DNA of 64,000 nucleotides, taken from the NCBI GenBank assembly GCA_016222825.1, contig JACRQF010000015.1:297646-361645 (forward strand), read 5' to 3'. This document shows positions 21,843 to 33,391 of the stretch, in pieces. The position numbers and the translations under genes are program-made. The notes below the pieces were generated by a model. It had not been told where the DNA came from and did no database searches. It was given only the letters and a program-made list of their open reading frames with translations. Every line of letters begins with the position of its first letter. Position 1 is the stretch's first letter. The stretch is from Verrucomicrobiota bacterium (GTDB taxonomy: Bacteria; Verrucomicrobiota; Verrucomicrobiia; CAIQCK01).

Positions 21843-24800
21843 CTATCGCGGCAACGACGCGGTCCGCCGCGAGGCGCGCAAGGTCCGCAATCCCACAGCC
21901 GCTTGGTCCGCCACGAGCACGGCGGGATGCTCGTCGAGCACGCGGGTAAGCAGAGCTTCGATTCCCGGCGCGTGGGTTTCGGTCAGGCCGGCCAGCGCTC
22001 CAGTTCGCAGCCAGATGTTGTCGCTGGCCAACAGACGGCGCACTTCGGGATGCTCGATGTTTCGGGCGAGCCGGGCGATGGCCTTGGCTGCCGGATAGCC
22101 CAGCCCCATTCCCAACGGCCCGTGCATGCCGGGGAAGTTCTCCGCTTGGGCGTATCGCACCAGCGCCGGCAGCGCATCGGCCACGCCGCGTTGCGCAAGG
22201 GCCTCGCACGTCCAGTAAAACCCAACCGTCTCGGCGAGCTTGGCGTAGGCATCCAGTTTCTTTAGCAGCAGCGGATTCAAATCGGCGTGCTTGCCCGATA
22301 GCAGTTCCCGCAATGCGAGATAATTGGCAAACGGGTAAGGTGAATCAAGCAACCGCTGCAACATCGGCGGCGCAGCATCAGTATAGCGCGCCGACAACTC
22401 AACGACCGCGCGGTCTAGAGGGTGAATGCCAGTGACCATCATCCGCGTCGCGCCGGGCGCCTGGTTGTTCCCATTGTTCAGGTTGCGGTAGTGGTCCTTC
22501 TTGAGACCTTCGGCAATGTCGCGTTCGAGCGACGCGAGGCTTGGCGCTCCCGGCGATGCTCGATCCTGTCGCGTTTCCACGACTGGCCCCGGCCACTTCA
22601 GACCGCGCGGCGGATACCACGCTTCGTAGGGCATCGGCGGGGGCAGCTTGATTTCCGGCACGCGATGGCCGGCGATGCGCTGGGTTTGTTGGATGGACCG
22701 CAGCGACTCCAAAGCCTGGCGTCGCACCACGGAGATCGGGTCGCGAGTGGCGATCTCGACCAGCAGGTCAATCGCGTCGGTCTTGCCGCGGGTCCCGAGT
22801 CCCACCGCGAGTCCGTAGCGCACGTCGCGGTAGCGCGTTATTGGATCGGCGAATGTCCGCAACTGCGCCACGTCCGCTGCGTGCCGGGCGAGCGCCATGA
22901 CGAGGTAGCACTTGTCGCGGAAGTTCGTTTCGAACCGCCCTTTGCCGATGGACATGATCTCCTTGAAATCATAGGGCTTGGCAGCTTCCGTCCGCAGCGC
23001 CGCGGCGGTCTTGGGACCGAAACCGAGCCGGTGAAGGAGCACGGCCCCGTCAATCCGCTCCCGCCAATTCTTGCTGGCCAGACAGGGCGCGACCAGTTCG
23101 TCAGGCACTTCCGATTGCTCGACGGCGAGACAGCCCAAGAGCCAGAGCGCCTGCTCCGGCTCGATCCGCTTCACCACCGGGAACGGGTGGCCGTGTTCGC
23201 TAAACGGGCGCTCCAGATTGATGCCCTCGCGAAGTTTCACATAGAGCGGATCCTGCTCCGGCGCGGCGTCACCACGCAGCACGTCGGCCAGCAACGCGAC
23301 TGCGTGCCGCCGCAGCCCCGCACGTTCCAACAAGAGCCGCACCAGTAACACACGTTGCGACTCGGGCCGGAGGCGGTCCTCGTAGCGCGGCTTCTCCAGA
23401 AATGTGCCGGGCAACAAACCGATCAACAGCGGCACGTCCTTCAGCACGGGTTTCGCGCCAGCCAGAACGAGGCCATGCAACCAGGCGTATTCTTCCGGCC
23501 GCGGCCCGTGCTGGAAGTAGCGAGCCAAGTAGCTGGGCCGCTTGGGAACCATCTCGTGGACCATCCGCCACAACGCCTCGATTGCCTGCGGTGTTCCAAT
23601 GCAACCCAGCGCGAGCGCTGCTTCGAACGCGTGATCTTGATGCTCCGGCCGCGACAGCCACGGAATCAGCAGCGGCACTGACGACGCATCGCGCATCCAG
23701 CCCGCCGCGCGAACCGCGCCCAACGCGGGCGGACGACCCGCCATGTCATTTCGCTTCCCTTCCACCGGATCGAATTTGACAGGCGGCGGCATGGGAGCCT
23801 GCAACGCCGTGCGCACGACCTGCCGGGCCGAATCCAGCGCGGCTGTTCCCAAGCGCCCGACCGCTTCAAACCACCGGTCGTTCAGTTCGTCACCCGCCTT
23901 CTGCCCGTGGCCGCACAATGCCGTGGGGCCTTTGCCAATCAGCTTCGCCAGTCCCTCCGCGCCGCCTACATCCGCAAGCAGCTTCGCATAGAACTTCACT
24001 CCATCATGGAGTGGTACGCAGGCCGTGATCGTCTCCAACGCAGCCGCCGCATGGAACCGAACCTGCCAGTCCGAGTCTCCGAGAGCTTTGCAGAGCGCAA
24101 GCGCCGTCTCCGGCGTGCCGAGCCGTGTCAGCGCCAGCGCGGCGGCGCGACGCACCTCCACCGTCTCGTCCGCGAGCAACCGGGCGATGGCGCCGCCGTC
24201 TTGTCGCGCTCCATCCTCCATCGTCATCAGCGTCTCGCAGCCGAGCCGCCGCAATTCCGGGTCCGCGTTGCCCAACCACGGCCGATAAATGGACTCCTCA
24301 CCCACGCGGGCTTGGCAACGATATTCCTCAAGTTCGTTGCGGCGATAGAGAATGTCGGTCACGTCAAGCCCGACCTGGACAGGCTCGCGCACGACAGGTG
24401 AGTGCAAAGCCGTGTGCGCAGGCGCGTCGTCCTGCGGCGCGTGGCAGCCTTGGCACGACTTGGTCTCGCCGGGTCGCGACGTGACGTAGCTCATCTCCAT
24501 CACGTTCTGCCGCGAGCCGACGGGCGCCGACGTGACAGGGTAGTTCCAGTCGAACGCAATCCGCCGCTGTGCCGCGTCCAGCGGTTCCACGAACAAGCCC
24601 GTGTCCGCCGGCGCTTCAAAATACGCCGAGCCATCCGGGAGCACGGGCACGATGCCGAGACTGCGCGTCGCAAGGCTCGTGTGGCTCGCAGAAGTCACTG
24701 CGGTCGGCAACGCTTCGATCACGCGGTAGTAACGGACCTTGCCCAGCACCGCCGCGACGTGTGGATTGTCGGAGCGGCGCGCGTTGAAGATCGCCATGCG

Positions 24801-26051
24801 ACAGCGGCCGGTGACCTGCACGAGGCTGGAATCTTTCGCAGAATCCGAAAACCCGCCCTTTGGCGCGAGCATCGTCGGTCGGGGGCGCTCCAGCAAGATA
24901 GGCCGCGCATCAAACTCGACCGTGTCTGGCCGATTGAACACTAGTTTCACCTCGCGCGTTTTCGGATCGGCCACGTAGATGCCCAGATCGCGCGCGCCCG
25001 GCTGCGTCGCCGAGAACAGGAACCGCCCGTCCGGCAGCGGATACGGCGTGGTTCTCGATCCCAGCGGCGAGAGATGAACGCGATGGGTCGCACCGCCGAG
25101 TTGAATCGTGGTCGCGCATGGGAAGACCGGCGAGAGCGCCGCCGTCGGAGTGAGCCCGCGCCGCACGTCGAGGATACACGGCCCCAATTCCGACAGCACC
25201 AGCAACGTCCCGTCGGGCATCTCACCCGCCTGCGCGTAGGCCAGGCCGGAGTGCCGCTCGCGGTTGTAGAACCGATAGCCGCCGATGCCGAAATAGTGGC
25301 TCTCGTCGGTGCCGTCGGGCCGGATGGTCATCAGGTAGTTCTCGTGCTTGTCGAGCGGCGGGACGTTCAGATGAAACGTGTCCCACAGCGTGAACAGAAT
25401 ACGCCCGTCCCGCAGCACCGTCGGGTCGAACACCGTGCCGGGATTGAACGTGAGTTGCTGCATCCCCTTCCCGTCGCTGTCCATGATCCAGAGCGTCTCC
25501 GTCCGCTCCTCGTGGTATTCATCGAGATAGCCATTGCGGTCGCTGACGAAGACGATCCGCCCGTCCGGCAGATACACTCCCGAAACGTCGTTGAACGGCC
25601 CGTCGGTCAACTGCACGAGGTTCAGCCCGTCCGCGCCGATCTCGTAGAGATGAAACCAATCCTCTCCGTCGCGCCGCATGCTGAACAGAATCCTGCGCCC
25701 GTCATAGGACGGCTCCGGGTCGAAGACTTCACCCTCCGTCAAATGGGTGATGCGCCGCAGTGTGCCGTCCGGCTGCGCGGGGATGAGCGTGTAGAGATTG
25801 CGTCCGGACCGCGAAGGCGTCGTCGTCCGCTCCAACGGATGCAAAGTGGTCCCGCGGTGGAAAATGTAACCTTCCTTCCAATGCGCCGTCCCCGGCCGCC
25901 CTTCCCACAAATGATGCGGTCCCAGAATATCGTCCGACACAAAGACGATCCCCGGCAGCCGATCATCCGCCCGGCCGCAGATCGCGCAGGATAGCAACGC
26001 CACGAGCGCGAGAAATGCCTCGAACATGGCTCGTCTGGACATCGGCGGCAT
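21843..26051 (-). CDS. large multidomain protein: N-terminal beta-propeller, single c-type haem site (CxxCH), C-terminal HEAT repeats (PVC-type)
   Basis: ORF 21843..26099 (1418 aa); signal peptide from ATG at 26051 (or 26042); propeller-like repeats (YLPDGRIVFVSDRNG, RDGRILFTLWD); CQGCH haem-binding motif; multiple HEAT-like repeats (…EVRRAAALALTRLGTPETALALCKALGDSDWQVRFHAAAAL…). Confidence 0.8.
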   Translation of the reverse strand: MPPMSRRAMFEAFLALVALLSCAICGRADDRLPGIVFVSDDILGPHHLWEGRPGTAHWKEGYIFHRGTTLHPLERTTTPSRSGRNLYTLIPAQPDGTLRRITHLTEGEVFDPEPSYDGRRILFSMRRDGEDWFHLYEIGADGLNLVQLTDGPFNDVSGVYLPDGRIVFVSDRNGYLDEYHEERTETLWIMDSDGKGMQQLTFNPGTVFDPTVLRDGRILFTLWDTFHLNVPPLDKHENYLMTIRPDGTDESHYFGIGGYRFYNRERHSGLAYAQAGEMPDGTLLVLSELGPCILDVRRGLTPTAALSPVFPCATTIQLGGATHRVHLSPLGSRTTPYPLPDGRFLFSATQPGARDLGIYVADPKTREVKLVFNRPDTVEFDARPILLERPRPTMLAPKGGFSDSAKDSSLVQVTGRCRMAIFNARRSDNPHVAAVLGKVRYYRVIEALPTAVTSASHTSLATRSLGIVPVLPDGSAYFEAPADTGLFVEPLDAAQRRIAFDWNYPVTSAPVGSRQNVMEMSYVTSRPGETKSCQGCHAPQDDAPAHTALHSPVVREPVQVGLDVTDILYRRNELEEYRCQARVGEESIYRPWLGNADPELRRLGCETLMTMEDGARQDGGAIARLLADETVEVRRAAALALTRLGTPETALALCKALGDSDWQVRFHAAAALETITACVPLHDGVKFYAKLLADVGGAEGLAKLIGKGPTALCGHGQKAGDELNDRWFEAVGRLGTAALDSARQVVRTALQAPMPPPVKFDPVEGKRNDMAGRPPALGAVRAAGWMRDASSVPLLIPWLSRPEHQDHAFEAALALGCIGTPQAIEALWRMVHEMVPKRPSYLARYFQHGPRPEEYAWLHGLVLAGAKPVLKDVPLLIGLLPGTFLEKPRYEDRLRPESQRVLLVRLLLERAGLRRHAVALLADVLRGDAAPEQDPLYVKLREGINLERPFSEHGHPFPVVKRIEPEQALWLLGCLAVEQSEVPDELVAPCLASKNWRERIDGAVLLHRLGFGPKTAAALRTEAAKPYDFKEIMSIGKGRFETNFRDKCYLVMALARHAADVAQLRTFADPITRYRDVRYGLAVGLGTRGKTDAIDLLVEIATRDPISVVRRQALESLRSIQQTQRIAGHRVPEIKLPPPMPYEAWYPPRGLKWPGPVVETRQDRASPGAPSLASLERDIAEGLKKDHYRNLNNGNNQAPGATRMMVTGIHPLDRAVVELSARYTDAAPPMLQRLLDSPYPFANYLALRELLSGKHADLNPLLLKKLDAYAKLAETVGFYWTCEALAQRGVADALPALVRYAQAENFPGMHGPLGMGLGYPAAKAIARLARNIEHPEVRRLLASDNIWLRTGALAGLTETHAPGIEALLTRVLDEHPAVLVADQAAVGLRTLRASRRTASLPR

Positions 26052-26095
26052 TGTCGCTGCCTCTCCGCAGCGTGCAAGCGCAAAACCCTCTCCGA

Positions 26096-28042
26096 TCATT
26101 CTGACGCGGCGCCGGTGAGCGCAACTTGCGTCTTCAGTTTCAGCCGCTGCACCGGCTGGTCAGTGCGCAGGACGACGCACGCGTGCTGCGTGATCGTGTT
26201 GGGCGCGAGCGTCGCGTCGGGCATGGACTCGATGCGAGCCGCAACCGCTTGGTCTGCCAAGTAGGTGACTGACACGTCGCCAGCCGTGATCTGGCCCGCG
26301 CTGGCGCGACTTGGCGCTTCCGCCGGCACGCCGAGATGCCAGCGGAACTGCACGATGTCGGGCTGCTTCAACTCGACCTCGTCTTCGATGGTCACGGAGG
26401 TTTGGCTCCATTCCACGCGCCGCTTCCATTTGACGACTGACTCGTAGCAGCCGGACACGTCCACGGAAGCCGCACCGCCCGATTCGTCCATCCGCTCGAC
26501 GGTGATCGGAGCCACGCGCCGCTCCTTCGTGAGCACTTGGCCCGCTTGCTTCAACACGGCAGGCGTGAGCTTCTCCAGGGCGGCGTCGCCGACCTGCAAC
26601 ACGTTATGGCCGGCGATGCTGCGCAAGTGCGTGGCGTTGTTCGGCACGGCGTAGTTGAGCGTGCCGGCCTCGATCAGCAACGCGCGCCGGCCGATGATGA
26701 AGTTCACATGGCCGCGGTCCATGTGATCGTGAAAATCCGTCGCATGGCCGCCGCGCAGCCAGAGGCCGGCCGCCGTGTCGTCGTCCCAACTGCTGCGCCA
26801 GTTCAGCCGCGCCGCCTTCGCGTAGTTCGCAAACAGCGGCGGCGCGCCCGCCCGCGAGGCCGGCATGTTCGCGGCGAGAATCGCGTCGAGCGTTTCGCCG
26901 AACCTGGCGCGCGTGCGCAGTCCCCACAGTGCGTGCGGACTGCCAGTCACGAAAGCTGCGGTCGCGAGAAGGTTCCGGTCGCGCGTGAGGTTTCCCCTCG
27001 AGCTGCCCGGCGCGTCGAACGCGTTGATCAGAAATCCGCCGGGCTGGAAATGATGGACAAGCCACGTCGGGAACTTCTGTAGGAATGGATGCGCCAGCAG
27101 CCGATTGTCACTTGTCCGCGCCGTCGCGCGCGCGATGGAGTAGAGGCTCTCCAGTGACAGACCGGAATAACGCAGTCCTTCGACGAACTCGCCATCGCTG
27201 CCTTGCACATCCATGGACCGGAGCAGCCGCGCAATCCCGGCCTCGCAGGTTTCGCGATGCCGGTCCACGCCGAGAAACAGGCAGGCTCGGACGAGAGCTT
27301 CGTTCGGCAGAATCCACTGATTGCTGTGCGCGGCCTCGCTGCGGACATACCACGGCCGCTTCGTCGCCCAATCCTTCTCCATCAAGGCCAGTTCGTCGGC
27401 CAGCCGCGATTCCAGTGCCGCGCGCAGGTCCGGCGAAATCGTGCCGGGCGGGAGCAGATCCACCGTGTCCGCAATCACCCGCACCAGCCAGCCGGTGCCG
27501 AGCCACGCGCCGTCGTCGCCCTTGTAGTGGGGCTTCGCATTGTTCAACGACCAGCCGCGCCGTTCCAGCGGAGACCACGCCGCCAACTCGGCGAGTTGCG
27601 CGCGGACGCGCTCGAACAACGCCGCATCGCCCGTCAGCGTGGCCGCCGCCGCAAGACGCGGAAGCTCGACCTTGAGCAAAGCGCCCGCATAGTTGTCGCC
27701 CTGCGAGAGGCAGAATATCTCCCACTCCTTGTCGGGAAGCGCCGACATCTGCGGTGGGCGCGTCTTGTATTTCAGCGTCACCCGCCACTTCCGCAGCTCC
27801 TCAAGCGTTTGCGGCCGGCGGAGCACCGGCTTGGCCGCGTCGTGTCTTGCCCCCGCGATGAGCTTCGCGCGCGCGCCCGCAAGCGCGGAATTGGTGGCAA
27901 CTGCCGAGAGAAGCTGTCTCAGCGGCGCGCGAGCAAGCTCATCGGGGGCGCGGTTGTCCGCTCTCGCGCATGAGCAGAACGCGACCGCGAGCGCCAGCAG
28001 CGAGGATGGCGCCCGCGGCAGATTCAGTCTGGGGATTGTCAT
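26096..28042 (-). CDS. heparinase II/III-like protein (polysaccharide lyase-like)
   Basis: ORF 26096..28096; ATG at 28042 gives signal peptide MTIPRLNLPRAPSSLLALAVAFCSCARA; C-terminal GGHATDFHDHMDRGHVNFI segment is typical of the heparinase II/III C-terminal domain. Confidence 0.75.
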   Translation of the reverse strand: MTIPRLNLPRAPSSLLALAVAFCSCARADNRAPDELARAPLRQLLSAVATNSALAGARAKLIAGARHDAAKPVLRRPQTLEELRKWRVTLKYKTRPPQMSALPDKEWEIFCLSQGDNYAGALLKVELPRLAAAATLTGDAALFERVRAQLAELAAWSPLERRGWSLNNAKPHYKGDDGAWLGTGWLVRVIADTVDLLPPGTISPDLRAALESRLADELALMEKDWATKRPWYVRSEAAHSNQWILPNEALVRACLFLGVDRHRETCEAGIARLLRSMDVQGSDGEFVEGLRYSGLSLESLYSIARATARTSDNRLLAHPFLQKFPTWLVHHFQPGGFLINAFDAPGSSRGNLTRDRNLLATAAFVTGSPHALWGLRTRARFGETLDAILAANMPASRAGAPPLFANYAKAARLNWRSSWDDDTAAGLWLRGGHATDFHDHMDRGHVNFIIGRRALLIEAGTLNYAVPNNATHLRSIAGHNVLQVGDAALEKLTPAVLKQAGQVLTKERRVAPITVERMDESGGAASVDVSGCYESVVKWKRRVEWSQTSVTIEDEVELKQPDIVQFRWHLGVPAEAPSRASAGQITAGDVSVTYLADQAVAARIESMPDATLAPNTITQHACVVLRTDQPVQRLKLKTQVALTGAASE

Positions 28043-28332
28043 TGTTCCATTCCGTCTGCGTCGCCGGCAGGGCTGCGTCAAGGGCAGGAGAACCACGCGG
28101 CCGGCCAGTTCGCAGCCGGCTTGTGAACGCGGGTTGTTGGTTCGACGGCCATCATGCGCGGCACTTTAAGGTTTCGCGGCCGGAAAGACAACACCAGCGG
28201 CATTGGAGGGCGGGTTCGCGCCTGGAACAAATCGCAAGCCAAGACAGGGGCCGTGCTGTTCCACGTCCTCGGCGGCAACGACGTGGCAGGGAATCCAAAG
28301 ACCGTTTGAGAAGCTTCAGGACGGCTCGCCCA

Positions 28333-29250
28333 TCAAGCCACCGCGGTCTTGTTTCTGACCGTGGCGGTTGACTGTTCGGCAACGGCGATGTTTGGCGAAC
28401 GGCGCGCTTCTGGCAGACTGTCGAACCCTCCGACAGCACCGCAGGACTGCGCCGGCGCGTCGGGCGCAGCGCCGACGTGCAACGTCGGGTTGGGCGCGTC
28501 CTGCGAGGTGACGTGGACACGGACGTGGCGCGCGTCGGCGTTGTGGAGGGCGGCGGTCACGGCGCGGTGGGCCAGTTCGGGGCGGTTGCACTCGCGGCTG
28601 AGATGGCCGAGGAAGATGTGCCGCAGGCCGCCGCTTGCGAGCTGTGTGACGACTTCGGCGGCGGCCTCGTTGGATAGATGGCCGAAGCGTGAGAGAATGC
28701 GCTGCTTCAACGACCACGGGCGGCTGGCGTCCTGCAACATGCGCGGGTCGTGGTTGGTCTCCAGCATGAGGACGTTGGCGGGCCGAACGCGTTCGAGCAC
28801 CAGGCGCGTGCAGTGGCCCAAGTCGGTCAGCACACCGACGTTGCCGCACTCGTGCCGCAGCAGGAAACCGACCGGATCGTGCGCGTCGTGCGGCACGGTG
28901 AAGCTCTCCACCAGCACGTCGCCCAGTTCGAACGCGTGGCCGGTCTGAAACACGCGCCATTGTTTCAACTCCGGCATCTCCTCCTGCACGGCCTCGGCGG
29001 TGAGGCGGTTGGCATAGACGGGAATCTCGTAACGTTTGCAGAGCACGGGCAGTCCTTGCGTGTGGTCGTGGTGCTCGTGCGTCAGCAACACCGCGCTCAC
29101 CTCTTCGAGCTTGCGTCCGATGCTGGCGAGCCGCATCGCGATCTGTTTGCCGCTGAAGCCGGCATCAATGAGCAGCCGCAGCCGTGGCGTCTCGATGAAC
29201 GCGCAGTTGCCGGCCGACCCGCTGCCGAGGATGGTGATCGTTGCTGCCAC
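28333..29250 (-). CDS. MBL-fold metallo-hydrolase
   Basis: ORF 28333..30018; MBL core begins at GTG 29250 (MAATITILGSGSAGNC…LLTHEHHDHTQG…, HxHxDH motif). An alternative ATG start at 29364 would add 38 residues and lies inside the palindromic element. Confidence 0.7.
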   Translation of the reverse strand: MAATITILGSGSAGNCAFIETPRLRLLIDAGFSGKQIAMRLASIGRKLEEVSAVLLTHEHHDHTQGLPVLCKRYEIPVYANRLTAEAVQEEMPELKQWRVFQTGHAFELGDVLVESFTVPHDAHDPVGFLLRHECGNVGVLTDLGHCTRLVLERVRPANVLMLETNHDPRMLQDASRPWSLKQRILSRFGHLSNEAAAEVVTQLASGGLRHIFLGHLSRECNRPELAHRAVTAALHNADARHVRVHVTSQDAPNPTLHVGAAPDAPAQSCGAVGGFDSLPEARRSPNIAVAEQSTATVRNKTAVA

Positions 29251-29337
29251 AGCCGTTGAGCGTAGCGAGCCGAAGCGGCGGTCACAAGGAGGAAAGTGGA
29301 GGCGGAAAGAAGGTGACGCTTTGATGACGGATTTTTG

Positions 29338-29373
29338 GGGCAAAATCGTGATTTTGCCCTCCATGATTTTGCC
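29338..29373. promoter_or_regulatory. operator-like element: palindrome GGGCAAAATC-GT-GATTTTGCCC plus a third direct half-site GATTTTGCC
   Basis: Read directly: 10-bp perfect arms at 29338-29347 and 29350-29359, third half-site at 29365-29373; lies between the DUF4339 gene stop (29382) and the MBL hydrolase gene. Confidence 0.45.
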
Positions 29374-29381
29374 GTTCCCCG

Positions 29382-29897
29382 TTACTTCCCTTGCAACCGC
29401 CTCAGATACTCGTCGAGGAGTTGTTGCTGCGCGGCGGGGTCCAGACTTGCGACAAGCCAGATGTAGATAATGCTCAGCACACCCAGCAACAGCCCGGCGA
29501 AACCGAGGATGATGCCGCAGATTGCCAGCGCCCGGCCACGCTCGCGGCGCTGGCGGATTTGCGAGAGTGAGACAAAGCCACAAATGACGCATGGGATGGC
29601 AAAGGGAAAACAGCACAGGCCCAATTGCGCCAGCACGAAGCTCCAGATCGCCTGCGCGTTCACCGGCGGCCCAACCACTGGCGGCGCGCCCGCTTGAAAC
29701 CACGCCGCGAAAGCCGCGTCCAACTCGCGTCGCTCTCCCGCCGCGCGCCACTGGCTGTCCGACGACGACCAGACCATCGTCGCCTTCGTCAGGCGCGCCT
29801 CGCGGGTCCATCGCTCCAACGTGGCGATGTCCACGGGGCCGTATTCCCGCTCGTCGCCGCCGCAGACGCGGTAGGAAATAGAGAAAGGTTCGGTCAT
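29382..29897 (-). CDS. DUF4339 (GYF-like) domain membrane protein, tandem paralog 3
   Basis: ORF 29382..29921; ATG at 29897 gives MTEPFSISYRVCGGDEREYGPVDIATLERW… then two or three TM helices. Start overlaps upstream gene stop (ATGA). Confidence 0.7.
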   Translation of the reverse strand: MTEPFSISYRVCGGDEREYGPVDIATLERWTREARLTKATMVWSSSDSQWRAAGERRELDAAFAAWFQAGAPPVVGPPVNAQAIWSFVLAQLGLCCFPFAIPCVICGFVSLSQIRQRRERGRALAICGIILGFAGLLLGVLSIIYIWLVASLDPAAQQQLLDEYLRRLQGK

Positions 29898-30385
29898 GTG
29901 CCGAGGCCCTCCACGCGGCACCTGAACACGGTCCAGAACAATCCGAGAAGCAGGCTAAGCACGAGGGAGAAGATGCCGATGGCGATGCCGGCGATGGCCA
30001 GCCCGCGTCCGCCTTCACCGCGCGTGTTGATCTGCGACAGCGAGATGGCGCCGAGGATAATCGCCGGGACGGAGAGGCAACCGCAGCAGTTCAACCCGAA
30101 GACCGCCAGCGACAGGCTCCAGACCGCGAGTGTGTTTGTGCGCGGCACTGCGAAGGAGAGCGGCGGGATGACGGCGGGCGGCAACGGGGCGATTCCGAGG
30201 GCTTGGGCCAGTTCAGGGATTTGCACGGCGGGCTGCCAGTTGCCGGTGCGCGAGTCCCACACCTTTGTCGGGGCGGCGACGCGGCGCTGGCGGATCCACT
30301 CTTGAAGCGTGGCGAGGTCCACCGGGCCGTATTCCTGACCGTCGCCGCCGATGATGCGGAAGGTAACTGGTGTCGCGTCTGTCAT
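29894..30385 (-). CDS. DUF4339 (GYF-like) domain membrane protein, tandem paralog 2
   Basis: 163-aa ORF: MTDATPVTFRIIGGDGQEYGPVDLATLQEWIRQRRVAAPTKVWDSRTGNWQPAVQIPEL then hydrophobic C-terminus. Confidence 0.7.
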   Translation of the reverse strand: MTDATPVTFRIIGGDGQEYGPVDLATLQEWIRQRRVAAPTKVWDSRTGNWQPAVQIPELAQALGIAPLPPAVIPPLSFAVPRTNTLAVWSLSLAVFGLNCCGCLSVPAIILGAISLSQINTRGEGGRGLAIAGIAIGIFSLVLSLLLGLFWTVFRCRVEGLGT

Positions 30386-30415
30386 GGTTTCTGGGATGGC
30401 TCGGCGCCAAGCACG

Positions 30416-31393
30416 TCAGGTTTGCTGACCGAAAATGTTCTCGTAAGCGACCATGAACATGCAGAAGCACATGGGCAGAGTGAAAACGATCCCGACAATG
30501 CAGGCAAGCAAGCCGAGCATGGTCAGCAGTCCCACCACGAGACCGTATGCGAAAATGGCAAACCAATGCCTGGCCACAACGCGACGGCTGGTTTCCATCG
30601 CCGCCCAGAACTGCATCCGCCGGTCCGCGACCAACGGCAACGCGAACGAATAGCAGACGCCGAGATACAGCACTGGCACCATGATCAGGCCCACGCCCAG
30701 CACCACCAACGAAACGCCCAACATATTGCGCGAGTCGGCCAGGAGCGCGCCGATGCCCACGACAACTCCACCAGGCAGAGCCGCGGCGAGGATCAGCACC
30801 GTCATGATGAGGTTCACCAGGATGGCTTGGGCGAAGAACAGATTGAAGCCATCGAAGATGTTGCCGAAACTCACGGTTTGTCCGCGCCGTCGCTGCAACA
30901 GCACATACCACACGCCGCCGATGAGCACCGGCTGGACAACGAGGTTGAAGGCCAGTTGCACCACGGCGCCAAAACAGGGAATCATCCCGATGGCGCTGAC
31001 ACCGAAGGACATGCCGAAAACGATCCAGCACGCGCCGAGCGCGAAACCCATATTGGCCTTGAAGAAGTTCCATCCCTGATTGAGCCAGTCGCCGAAGGCG
31101 ACCGTGTAATCGCGTTGCAGAATCTGACCCGCCAATTCTGCGCCCGGCGCGGGGCCGGTGGGAGCGACGCCGGGCGCGGCGGCTGGCGCGGGCGGCGGCG
31201 CGCTGAAGGCAGCGGCCAGTTCCGCAATCTGCGCGGCGGGCTGCCATTGGCCGGTGCGCGAATCCCACACCTGCGTCTGGCCGGCGACGCGGCCCTCGCG
31301 CGCCCATTGTTGGATGGTGGCGAGGTCAATGGGGCCGTATTCCTTGCCGTCGCCGCCGACGATCTTGAACGTGGGTGATGCTGGTGTGCTCAT
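30416..31393 (-). CDS. DUF4339 (GYF-like) domain fused to polytopic membrane domain, tandem paralog 1
   Basis: ORF 30416..31501; ATG at 31393 gives MSTPASPTFKIVGGDGKEYGPIDLATIQQWAREGRVAGQTQVWDSRTGQWQPAAQIAEL, Pro/Ala-rich linker, then ~6 TM helices. Confidence 0.7.
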   Translation of the reverse strand: MSTPASPTFKIVGGDGKEYGPIDLATIQQWAREGRVAGQTQVWDSRTGQWQPAAQIAELAAAFSAPPPAPAAAPGVAPTGPAPGAELAGQILQRDYTVAFGDWLNQGWNFFKANMGFALGACWIVFGMSFGVSAIGMIPCFGAVVQLAFNLVVQPVLIGGVWYVLLQRRRGQTVSFGNIFDGFNLFFAQAILVNLIMTVLILAAALPGGVVVGIGALLADSRNMLGVSLVVLGVGLIMVPVLYLGVCYSFALPLVADRRMQFWAAMETSRRVVARHWFAIFAYGLVVGLLTMLGLLACIVGIVFTLPMCFCMFMVAYENIFGQQT

Positions 31394-31522
31394 GTGGGAC
31401 TCCTTGGTTGATTGATGGCCGACTATCTCCGTCTGGACGCAACCATTACCAGAAAGCCGCCGCCGCGTCGAGGGGCGAAAAACCGCTTGCGTTCGCGGCA
31501 AGCGCGGCTAGACTGCTGCGCA

Positions 31523-31576
31523 AATGAACAAGATGACGCAGCATTGGTGGTGGCATAGATCGGGCCTCAAGCCCTG
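31523..31576 (+). CDS. candidate attenuator leader peptide (17 aa, MNKMTQHWWWHRSGLKP)
   Basis: Short ORF read directly from sequence (ATG AAC AAG ATG ACG CAG CAT TGG TGG TGG CAT AGA TCG GGC CTC AAG CCC TGA); three consecutive Trp codons flanked by His codons, immediately upstream of hisF-hisI-trpE-trpG. Confidence 0.55.
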
Positions 31577-31609
31577 ATCGCGCTATCCCTGCGCTGCGCT
31601 TGAGGACCC
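31562..31609 (+). promoter_or_regulatory. candidate antiterminator stem (GGGCCUCAAGC pairs with GCUUGAGGaCCC)
   Basis: 11-bp pairing with one bulge between 31562-31572 and 31598-31609; its 3' arm shares CCC (31607-31609) with the terminator 5' arm, so the two structures are mutually exclusive. Confidence 0.45.
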
Positions 31610-31642
31610 GGTGATTTGAGAAAGTCATCGGGTTTTTTATTT
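31607..31642 (+). terminator. intrinsic terminator-like hairpin plus U-tract (CCCGGUGAU…8-nt loop…GUCAUCGGG then UUUUUUAUUU)
   Basis: 9-bp stem (two G-U pairs) followed directly by T6AT3; ends 10 nt before the hisF ATG at 31652. Confidence 0.55.
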
Positions 31643-31651
31643 CAACGAATC

Positions 31652-32830: not shown

Positions 32831-33391
32831 ATGAGCGAACTCTACGCACCGCCATTCGGACTGGCCTACTGGGCCGGCGTGGCGTTGCTGTTGTTCGCGC
32901 GCGGGCTGGATTTCCTCAGCACGTGGATCGCGACGCCGAGTTTGTTGCTGGAGGCGAACCCGATCGCGCGGCGGCTGGGCTGGCAAGGCGGAATTGCGGT
33001 GAACCTGCTCGTCTGCCTGGTGGCGGCGATGATTCCGTTTGTGGCTGTGCTGATCAGCGTGACGAGCGTGCTGGTGGCGGCGCGGAATTTCCAGGCGGCG
33101 TGGGTGTCGCGGACGATGGGCGAGTATGAGTTCCGCGAGCATCTGGAGGAGCAGTTTGGCCGCGCCGACAAGCGGCTGGTGCTCGGCTGTGTCTGGGCGC
33201 AAGGACTGCTCTACAGCGCGGTCGGCGTGGCGGTGGTGGCGCTGACGAACGACCTGATGGCGCAGGCGGTCGGCGGCGGCATCGTGGGTTTTGGCGTGGC
33301 GATAGCGGTCCATTCAATACATTATTACCGAAGAGCAAGACATGTATTATCCGACAAAGAGCGAGTTTCGCAGTTTAGCGAGCCGCGGTAA
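32831..33391 (+). CDS. hypothetical integral membrane protein (about 4 TM helices)
   Basis: ORF starts 4 nt after the hisI stop and overlaps trpE by 50 nt; strongly hydrophobic; no recognised family. Could be a frame artefact. Confidence 0.4.
   Translation: MSELYAPPFGLAYWAGVALLLFARGLDFLSTWIATPSLLLEANPIARRLGWQGGIAVNLLVCLVAAMIPFVAVLISVTSVLVAARNFQAAWVSRTMGEYEFREHLEEQFGRADKRLVLGCVWAQGLLYSAVGVAVVALTNDLMAQAVGGGIVGFGVAIAVHSIHYYRRARHVLSDKERVSQFSEPR

Follow-up and report, generated by a model that had tools for sequence, protein, structure and literature searches.

Three tandem genes for GYF-headed membrane proteins form a conserved operon in Verrucomicrobiota

Bacterial GYF domains were discovered by Balaji and Aravind in 2007, who found them fused to transmembrane (TM) regions and encoded in conserved neighbourhoods with TM proteins, and who pointed to the flanking proline-rich stretches as possible ligands (PMC2034487). 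Among bacterial membrane proteins with a GYF domain, GltJ (AgmX) of Myxococcus xanthus alone has been studied experimentally (PDB 7z3c; PMC11135422). Attia et al. (2024) report that the cytosolic GltJ GYF domain binds a proline-rich sequence of AglZ with micromolar affinity, and that it does so via its beta-sheet face, the surface that is best conserved across prokaryotic GYF domains (PMC11135422). In bacteria the domain typically lies in the cytosol at the N-terminus, ahead of a membrane module, in proteins that are often encoded in operons with other membrane proteins, and the G-Y-F triad is replaced in nearly all bacterial GYF domains (PMC11135422). This literature supports the view that the bacterial GYF domain is a cytoplasmic protein-protein adaptor placed ahead of membrane modules (PMC11135422, PMC2034487). 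Here we analyse three tandem genes, named A, B and C, at positions 29382-31393 of a 64,000-nt stretch (the window) of contig JACRQF010000015.1 from a Verrucomicrobiota bacterium (assembly GCA_016222825.1). Each of the three encodes an N-terminal GYF-type head joined by a proline-rich linker to a membrane module, and together they form one real, conserved operon.

The three genes are consecutive ORFs on the minus strand, as the original prediction had described them from the letters alone. Gene A (30416-31393) encodes a protein of 325 amino acids with a GYF_2 head (residues 1-62; 31208-31393), a Pro/Ala-rich linker (residues 63-100; 31094-31207) and a six-helix membrane body (residues 101-325; 30416-31093). 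Gene B (29894-30385; 163 amino acids) has a head of the same extent (residues 1-62; 30200-30385), a Pro-rich linker (residues 63-84; 30134-30199) and a DUF4190 body with a short tail (29894-30133). Gene C (29382-29897; 171 amino acids) is built likewise, with the head at residues 1-62 (29712-29897), a linker that carries a conserved APPxxGPPV motif (residues 63-80; 29658-29711) and a DUF4190 body with a 25-residue tail (29382-29657). The prediction of a shared N-terminal module on differing membrane anchors thus holds, with a six-helix body in A and DUF4190 in B and C. Genes A and B are 30 nt apart, whereas B and C share the sequence ATGA at 29894-29897 on the minus strand, in which the ATG of C overlaps the TGA of B, an arrangement indicative of translational coupling.

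Pfam searches confirm the proposed assignment of the proteins to GYF_2 (PF14237, formerly DUF4339) and DUF4190 (PF13828), and all three heads and both bodies score over the gathering cut-offs of 25.8 bits for GYF_2 and 35 bits for DUF4190. GYF_2 covers residues 14-59 in A, B and C with 42.2, 43.4 and 35.5 bits (E values of 7e-11, 3e-11 and 8.5e-9), and the 62-position DUF4190 model matches B with 59.7 bits (model positions 1-62) and C with 64.3 bits (positions 2-61). The heads therefore fall in the expected GYF family rather than in an unrelated one. The head signature F-x-I-x-GGDG-x-EYGP...W...W-x-P is found in the triad proteins, and the CC and GRG motifs of DUF4190 are conserved in an alignment of 45 homologues. 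The eukaryotic-type GYF model (PF02213) gives no Pfam match for A, B or C at E ≤ 0.1, and the position of the G-Y-F triad reads GRV in A, RRV in B and ARL in C. A GYF-head hidden Markov model (HMM) matches only A, B and C among the 433 window ORFs of at least 50 amino acids (E values of 7e-31 to 4e-23), and the resemblance among the three heads is far above chance. NCBI holds proteins 100% identical to A and B from a Verrucomicrobia bacterium metagenome-assembled genome, under the labels 'DUF4339 domain-containing protein' and 'DUF4190 domain-containing protein', so the triad genes are already catalogued in families of unknown function.

The head fold was examined in AlphaFold2 (AF2) models of A and B, and the structure prediction called for by the original prediction gives a GYF fold in both. 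The models place strands at residues 9-12 and 18-22, a helix at 24-32, strands at 41-44 and 49-52 and a helix at 57-62, with a predicted local confidence (pLDDT) of 84-92 (84-89 for the head of B), and this beta-beta-alpha-beta-beta-alpha order is that of GYF. Solved GYF domains are among the top matches to the head in a structural search. When a profile of the window family was compared with PDB sequences, the GltJ GYF domain (7z3c_A) was matched at E 1.9e-8, and CD2BP2 was marginal (E 0.46). The linkers that follow the heads are proline-rich and disordered in the models, and those of A and B are undocked with pLDDT values of 43-64. A conserved proline motif lies right behind each head, APAPG in A, xPPxV in B and APPxxGPPV in C, and the tether peptides around these motifs read PPPAPAAAPGVAPTGPAPG in A, APLPPAVIPPLSF in B and AGAPPVVGPPV in C.

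The triad proteins resemble GltJ in that a bacterial-type GYF domain lacking the G-Y-F triad lies N-terminal to a membrane anchor and is followed by a Pro-containing stretch. The remainder differs. GltJ has a ZnR domain, a 95-residue MglA-binding linker, a single TM helix and a periplasmic TonB-C-like part, whereas the membrane modules of the window proteins are polytopic or dispanin-like, and a Pfam scan of the triad proteins finds neither ZnR nor TonB-C domains. The GltJ equivalog model NF033761 (NCBIfam, 671 positions) reaches 13.6 bits against a cut-off of 450, and the match is confined to the GYF region. GltJ belongs to the Agl-Glt gliding machine, but no glt or agl genes lie near the triad. 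No signal peptide was found in A, B or C.

We next consider how far the operon is conserved, using related loci that were drawn from metagenomes and GTDB genomes (the genome scan was queried with 21 close sequences). The original prediction had proposed neighbourhood conservation as a check, and the A-B-C order is indeed the same in seven triad-type loci, namely L001, L003, L005, L007, L008, L010 and the window, among which the identity of gene B to the window copy drops to 56%; L002 is a short second contig with the same genes as L001. The ATGA overlap of B and C, which had been noticed in the window, is kept as a 4-nt overlap in all nine related loci examined, and the gap between A and B in the A-B-C loci is 27-30 nt or is replaced by a 4-nt overlap (L003 and L008). 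A putative sigma-70 promoter of A-B-C lies at 31443-31471 on the minus strand, with the -35 hexamer TCGACG (31466-31471), a 17-nt spacer and the extended -10 element TGGTAATGG (31443-31451). The motif TCGACG...TGGTA is kept upstream of gene A in an alignment of eight related loci; because a strict consensus promoter scan did not report it, the promoter of gene A is proposed from this conservation. A Shine-Dalgarno sequence, AAGGAG (31400-31405, minus strand), stands 6 nt ahead of the gene A ATG and is kept as (a/c)aaggag in the relatives. Terminator-like sites within genes A and C occur at chance level (4 found and 2.5 expected), and Rfam gives no meaningful structured-RNA match in or around the triad.

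The heads are also similar at the nucleotide level, as originally noticed, with identities over the first 186 nt of 75% for A/B, 58% for A/C and 60% for B/C, and protein identities over the first 62 residues of 65%, 45% and 44%, respectively. The local duplication that had been concluded from this similarity is not a recent one, as the three paralogues are already separate orthologous groups in relatives whose gene B is 53-77% identical. The heads cluster by orthologue and not by genome, and the paralogues are therefore old; between genomes the nucleotide identity of heads is 76-91% for A-A and 74-97% for C-C, and within a genome it is 68-80% for A-B. This orthologue-wise clustering led us to reject both a recent duplication and a general concerted evolution of the heads. 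Judging from these alignments, purifying selection on the head accounts for the nucleotide similarity. In the gene A orthologues no part is as well conserved as the head (88% identical, compared with 67% for the body), and the gene C linker is 81% identical among nine orthologues.

Two relatives show what the repeated heads can do. In L004 and L006 gene A is absent, and the first gene (6001-6513 in L004 and 178-669 in L006) is an A/B chimera, in which an A-type 5' untranslated region and an A-type head start are followed by a B-type remainder. The crossover lies within the head at about nt 60 in L004 and at about nt 120-180 in L006, and on the sequence comparison we read the two loci as independent events, in each of which homologous recombination between the A head and the B head deleted gene A. 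These deletions show that gene A can be dispensed with and that the repeated heads serve as substrates for recombination. No paralogue is pseudogenised in the relatives, a point that the original prediction had wanted checked, and the loss of gene A in these two is a clean deletion. Gene B of L007 holds a candidate short gene-conversion patch, in which 8 of 18 differences from the L005 gene B match A; it is ambiguous, since the reverse comparison gives an equal result.

The membrane body of gene A has six long membrane helices in both the hydropathy scan and the AF2 model, and the two hydrophobic segments found in each of B and C complete a picture that agrees with the TM counts first proposed. 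In a structural superposition, the membrane core of gene A matches the fold of CysZ and the choline-transporter-like (CTL) proteins, but the CysZ sulfate permease (3tx3) and CTL1/PNS1 (7wwb and 9f63) share only 7-11% sequence identity with the gene A body, and gene A has no Pfam or NCBIfam match to the CysZ or CTL families. Sub-threshold matches were obtained to BPSS1780_fam (NCBIfam; 55.4 bits against a cut-off of 90, E 5e-15) and GPDPase_memb (Pfam; 18.8 against 29.6 bits, E 7e-4), and orthologues of gene A match DUF975, GPDPase_memb and UPF0259 (PF06161/PF10110/PF06790). These sequence matches support the placement of the gene A body in the DUF975/UPF0259/GPDPase_memb/BPSS1780 group at the superfamily level only, and the modelled fold suggests that the body may be a small-solute transport or channel module. 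We found no functional literature on DUF4190, DUF2752 or DUF975, and the mutant data for BPSS1780 are uninformative.

The bodies of B and C are of a different kind. The first of their two hydrophobic segments has a helix-break-helix form, and in the AF2 model of B, in which this body is of lower confidence, its helices at residues 85-99 and 105-122 are separated at the conserved CC(G)C motif and are followed by a long helix at 127-161. The loop between the segments is basic, with five Arg in C, and in 24 related DUF4190 modules its mean net charge is +2.4, compared with +0.5 for the C-terminal tail. With a cytoplasmic head and a cytoplasmic basic loop, the first segment would have to be re-entrant. 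These features suggest an IFITM/dispanin-like topology for B and C, with the N-terminus inside, a re-entrant segment, a basic cytoplasmic loop, one TM helix and the C-terminus outside. A re-entrant first segment has been described for the IFITM/CD225 proteins, and CD225/dispanin proteins such as IFITM3 and PRRT2 share with B and C a small size, a double-Cys first segment and a basic loop and, on this suggested topology, a cytoplasmic N-terminus and a C-terminal TM helix. A genuine CD225 module stands behind the same head in a sister array (L031:6255-6752; 84.9 bits, E 4e-24), and hhalign aligns the DUF4190 bodies with CD225 bodies at 85% probability (E 5.7e-6, 48 columns), compared with 2.5% for human IFITM3 alone. 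B and C are unmatched by CD225 (PF04505) in Pfam at E ≤ 0.1. Since the IFITM3 comparison is not significant and a CD225 match is lacking, we rate the relationship of DUF4190 to the CD225/dispanin proteins as suggestive only. In layout, B and C are identical to the GYF_2 + DUF4190 architecture recorded in Pfam; what distinguishes this locus is that the operon has a fixed set of three genes, of which the first is DUF975-like.

The wider occurrence of such genes was surveyed in 80 GTDB loci returned by the search, nearly all from Verrucomicrobiota, together with the loci fetched earlier. The survey comprises 174 GYF-headed genes in 82 loci, and 172 of the 174 continue after the head with a linker of about 25 amino acids and then a hydrophobic segment; Pro makes up 19% of the linker residues, compared with 6% overall. 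Tandem genes are frequent: at least two GYF-headed genes occur in 38 loci, at least three in 22 and five to seven in 11, with gaps of -4 to about 200 nt, and the genes of an array are often coupled by 4-nt overlaps. The largest same-strand arrays have seven genes (L028, L031, L032 and L035), followed by six in L043 and five in L012, L015, L040, L042, L058 and L060. Their bodies are of at least nine types, including DUF4190, DUF975-like, RDD, CD225, TM2, a DUF4190-DUF1559 fusion and several unassigned modules. The arrays of L031, L032 and L058 are flanked upstream by trpD and DUF2752, and downstream of large arrays there is a gene for a small membrane protein whose N-terminus is conserved (MKWVCLMANM...) and which, in L031, includes a PilZ domain. 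Other lineages have a lone GYF_2-DUF4190 gene, behind which lie DUF2752 and YbjQ or unrelated genes. On this survey the window triad represents, in a small and stable form, an arrangement that is common in Verrucomicrobiota. The head itself is far more widespread, and alone it retrieves 1823 cluster representatives at E ≤ 1e-3 out of 1.84 billion.

The genes for DUF2752 proteins form a recurrent neighbour of their own. They stand beside GYF_2-DUF4190 genes or arrays in at least two lineages (L085:1570-2007, L087:848-1285, L031:3936-4451, L032:2134-2676 and L058:3898-4380), following the lone gene in one lineage and preceding the array in Verrucomicrobiota, and none is present in the window.

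From these results we propose a docking and assembly model as the most likely mechanism of A-B-C. The operon encodes three inner-membrane proteins, each with a GYF domain of about 60 amino acids that we infer to be cytoplasmic, a proline-rich tether of 20-40 amino acids and a membrane module, and coupled translation from one transcript would give fixed A:B:C ratios. By analogy with GltJ, the three heads would be cytoplasmic docking handles for proline-rich peptides, and the ligand could be a cytosolic proline-rich protein common to all three or the proline motifs conserved in the tethers of the other two. Docking would then join the CysZ-fold, possibly solute-conducting A to the two dispanin-like DUF4190 proteins in one membrane-associated assembly. 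In its favour are the GltJ precedent, the proposal of flanking proline-rich stretches as GYF ligands, the lack of signal peptides, the basic loop of DUF4190, the strong conservation of the gene A head and of the gene C tether motif, and the Pro content of the linkers. We hold this model tentatively, with a probability of roughly 45%, and several points weigh against it. The heads of the window proteins are only about 20% identical to the GltJ GYF domain, and the GltJ partners AglZ and MglA and its ZnR domain are absent here. The heads are only 44-65% identical to one another and could have different ligands, and proline-rich linkers also serve as flexible tethers of a generic kind. L004 and L006 have lost gene A but kept B and C, which makes an obligate A-B-C complex unlikely. 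The likeness of gene A to the CysZ/CTL fold, at the identity given above, does not establish transport; the membrane part of the B model is of low confidence (pLDDT 56-78), and the weakness of the link between DUF4190 and CD225 counts against the dispanin-like part of the assembly.

The same observations bear on the alternatives. The three proteins could be tandem paralogues that act independently, sharing a common adaptor head and adjoining through duplication with no joint complex, which we consider somewhat unlikely. Such independence would fit the dispensability of gene A in two lineages, the single GYF_2-DUF4190 genes of other phyla, the divergence of the heads, of which each orthologous group retains its own type, and the very large head family with its many different partner domains. 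However, order, spacing and 4-nt overlaps are kept in relatives whose gene B is only 53-77% identical, and in Verrucomicrobiota up to seven such genes are retained side by side with little space between them, which points to selection on co-expression and not to a residue of duplication. It is improbable, in our view, that the head is instead an intramolecular regulator that binds the tether motif of its own chain, or the cytoplasmic loop of its own module, and so gates, for example, the CysZ-like body of A. The tethers of 18-38 residues start at the domain end and may be too short for such a fold-back, and the linkers are of low confidence and undocked in both AF2 models; yet each protein does have a conserved proline motif straight after the head, and contacts between GYF domains and flanking proline-rich stretches were proposed by Balaji and Aravind (PMC2034487). 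The N-terminal region of GltJ also switches by intramolecular competition, but via the ZnR domain and linker and not via GYF (PMC11135422).

A further alternative joins the triad to the neighbouring gene for a metallo-beta-lactamase (MBL)-fold hydrolase, for which A, B and C would act, for example, as membrane sensors or anchors of a nucleotide- or nucleic-acid-degrading enzyme. The MBL gene comes after gene C in every related locus examined, the relatives' MBL proteins match the Anti-Pycsar_Apyc1 family of cyclic-nucleotide phosphodiesterases, and in more distant relatives an S1-P1 nuclease gene is next after MBL. We nevertheless regard this joint unit as highly improbable, because the MBL gene is preceded by a conserved promoter of its own that abuts the start codon, the spacer from gene C is variable and its hairpins are unrelated from one genome to another, a Pfam scan of the MBL protein shows neither a GYF domain nor a proline-rich region, no defence-system model matches A, B or C, and the larger GYF arrays of other Verrucomicrobiota do not adjoin an MBL gene. 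Returning to the docking model, it can be carried further than the window. The triad would then be the smallest form of a largely Verrucomicrobiota-specific modular system, in which the GYF head is an interchangeable 'address tag' on up to seven different membrane modules of one operon, head-to-tether contacts (GYF to PPxxGPP) daisy-chain the modules, and recombination at the heads adds, deletes and reshuffles them, as the two A-head::B-body fusions would exemplify; it would be a bacterial counterpart of the eukaryotic PRRT/IFITM dispanin networks. We consider this extension quite unlikely.

The MBL gene itself lies at 28333-29250 on the minus strand, starts with GTG and encodes a protein that matches Lactamase_B_2 with 85.8 bits in Pfam. 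Its promoter, also on the minus strand, consists of TTGTGA (29282-29287), a 17-nt spacer and TACGCT (29259-29264), and promoter and GTG are kept in nine loci. The -10 box stops 8 nt before the GTG and there is no Shine-Dalgarno sequence, so the mRNA is likely leaderless, and MBL is probably a separate, leaderless transcript. MBL as a fourth gene of the operon was rejected as the default on account of this conserved promoter of its own. PADLOC defence-system models match A, B and C in none of their families and give only weak generic MBL matches for the neighbour; without a PADLOC match, a defence role for the triad was rejected.

An operator-like palindrome had been reported next to the triad, but it lends no support to a regulation of these genes, and the small signalling or envelope module that the original prediction suggested is speculative. 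The palindrome at 29338-29373, GGGCAAAATC-GT-GATTTTGCCC with a third half-site GATTTTGCC, lies between the gene C stop and the MBL promoter and is present in the window and its closest relative L001 only, being absent from L003-L008 and L010. As it is common to L001 alone, it was rejected as a conserved operator, and it is probably a lineage-specific hairpin. A second inverted repeat, CGCTTGC-N7-GCAAGCG at 31484-31504, is conserved in the relatives and sits some 15 nt upstream of the -35 hexamer of gene A, but it falls on a divergent promoter, overlapping the spacer and the -35 hexamer TTGCGT (31487-31492) of the plus-strand his/trp leader promoter (-10 TAGACT, 31509-31514).

This leader belongs to a predicted his/trp attenuator of the classical type (31487-31651, plus strand) upstream of a hisF-hisI-(unknown membrane gene)-trpE-trpG cluster. 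Its promoter is conserved (TTGCGT, 16 nt, TAGACT), and its leader ORF of 17 codons (31524-31577), MNKMTQHWWWHRSGLKP, has three Trp codons with flanking His codons. Alternative hairpins pair 31562-31572 with 31598-31608, and a strong terminator hairpin at about 31603-31632 with a T-run at 31633-31638 stands just ahead of the hisF ATG (31652). The fold z-score is -4.7 and no Rfam family matches; the leader with its W-W-H core, the hairpins and the terminator are kept in L003, L004, L005, L008 and L010. Between hisI and trpE, an ORF at 32831-33391 on the plus strand encodes a predicted membrane protein of 186 amino acids that has no Pfam match and overlaps the trpE start, and relatives have a gene of the same size and without a family match at this position. 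On the other side of the triad, the minus strand carries a heparinase II/III-like gene (26096-28096) upstream of an ORF for a protein of 1418 amino acids (21843-26099), with a 4-nt overlap between the two. The 1418-residue protein has PD40 beta-propeller repeats, a hydrazine-synthase-alpha-like middle domain and many HEAT repeats.

The components of the triad are in known annotated families, and an N-terminal GYF domain with a membrane module in operons of membrane proteins has already been described. The gain for annotation is that 'DUF' proteins become one operon of GYF-headed inner-membrane proteins, of which the first has a transporter-like fold and the other two are dispanin-like. The leads of wider interest lie beyond the triad itself and are the multi-gene GYF arrays, their remodelling by head recombination, the CysZ-like body of DUF975 type and the possible link between DUF4190 and the dispanins. 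The head-mediated deletions illustrate the remodelling of gene arrays by repeated domain-coding segments. If the docking model is true, these operons would be compact test cases for the ligands of bacterial GYF domains outside myxobacterial gliding, and also for the roles of DUF4190/CD225 proteins and of small membrane proteins organised by adaptors.

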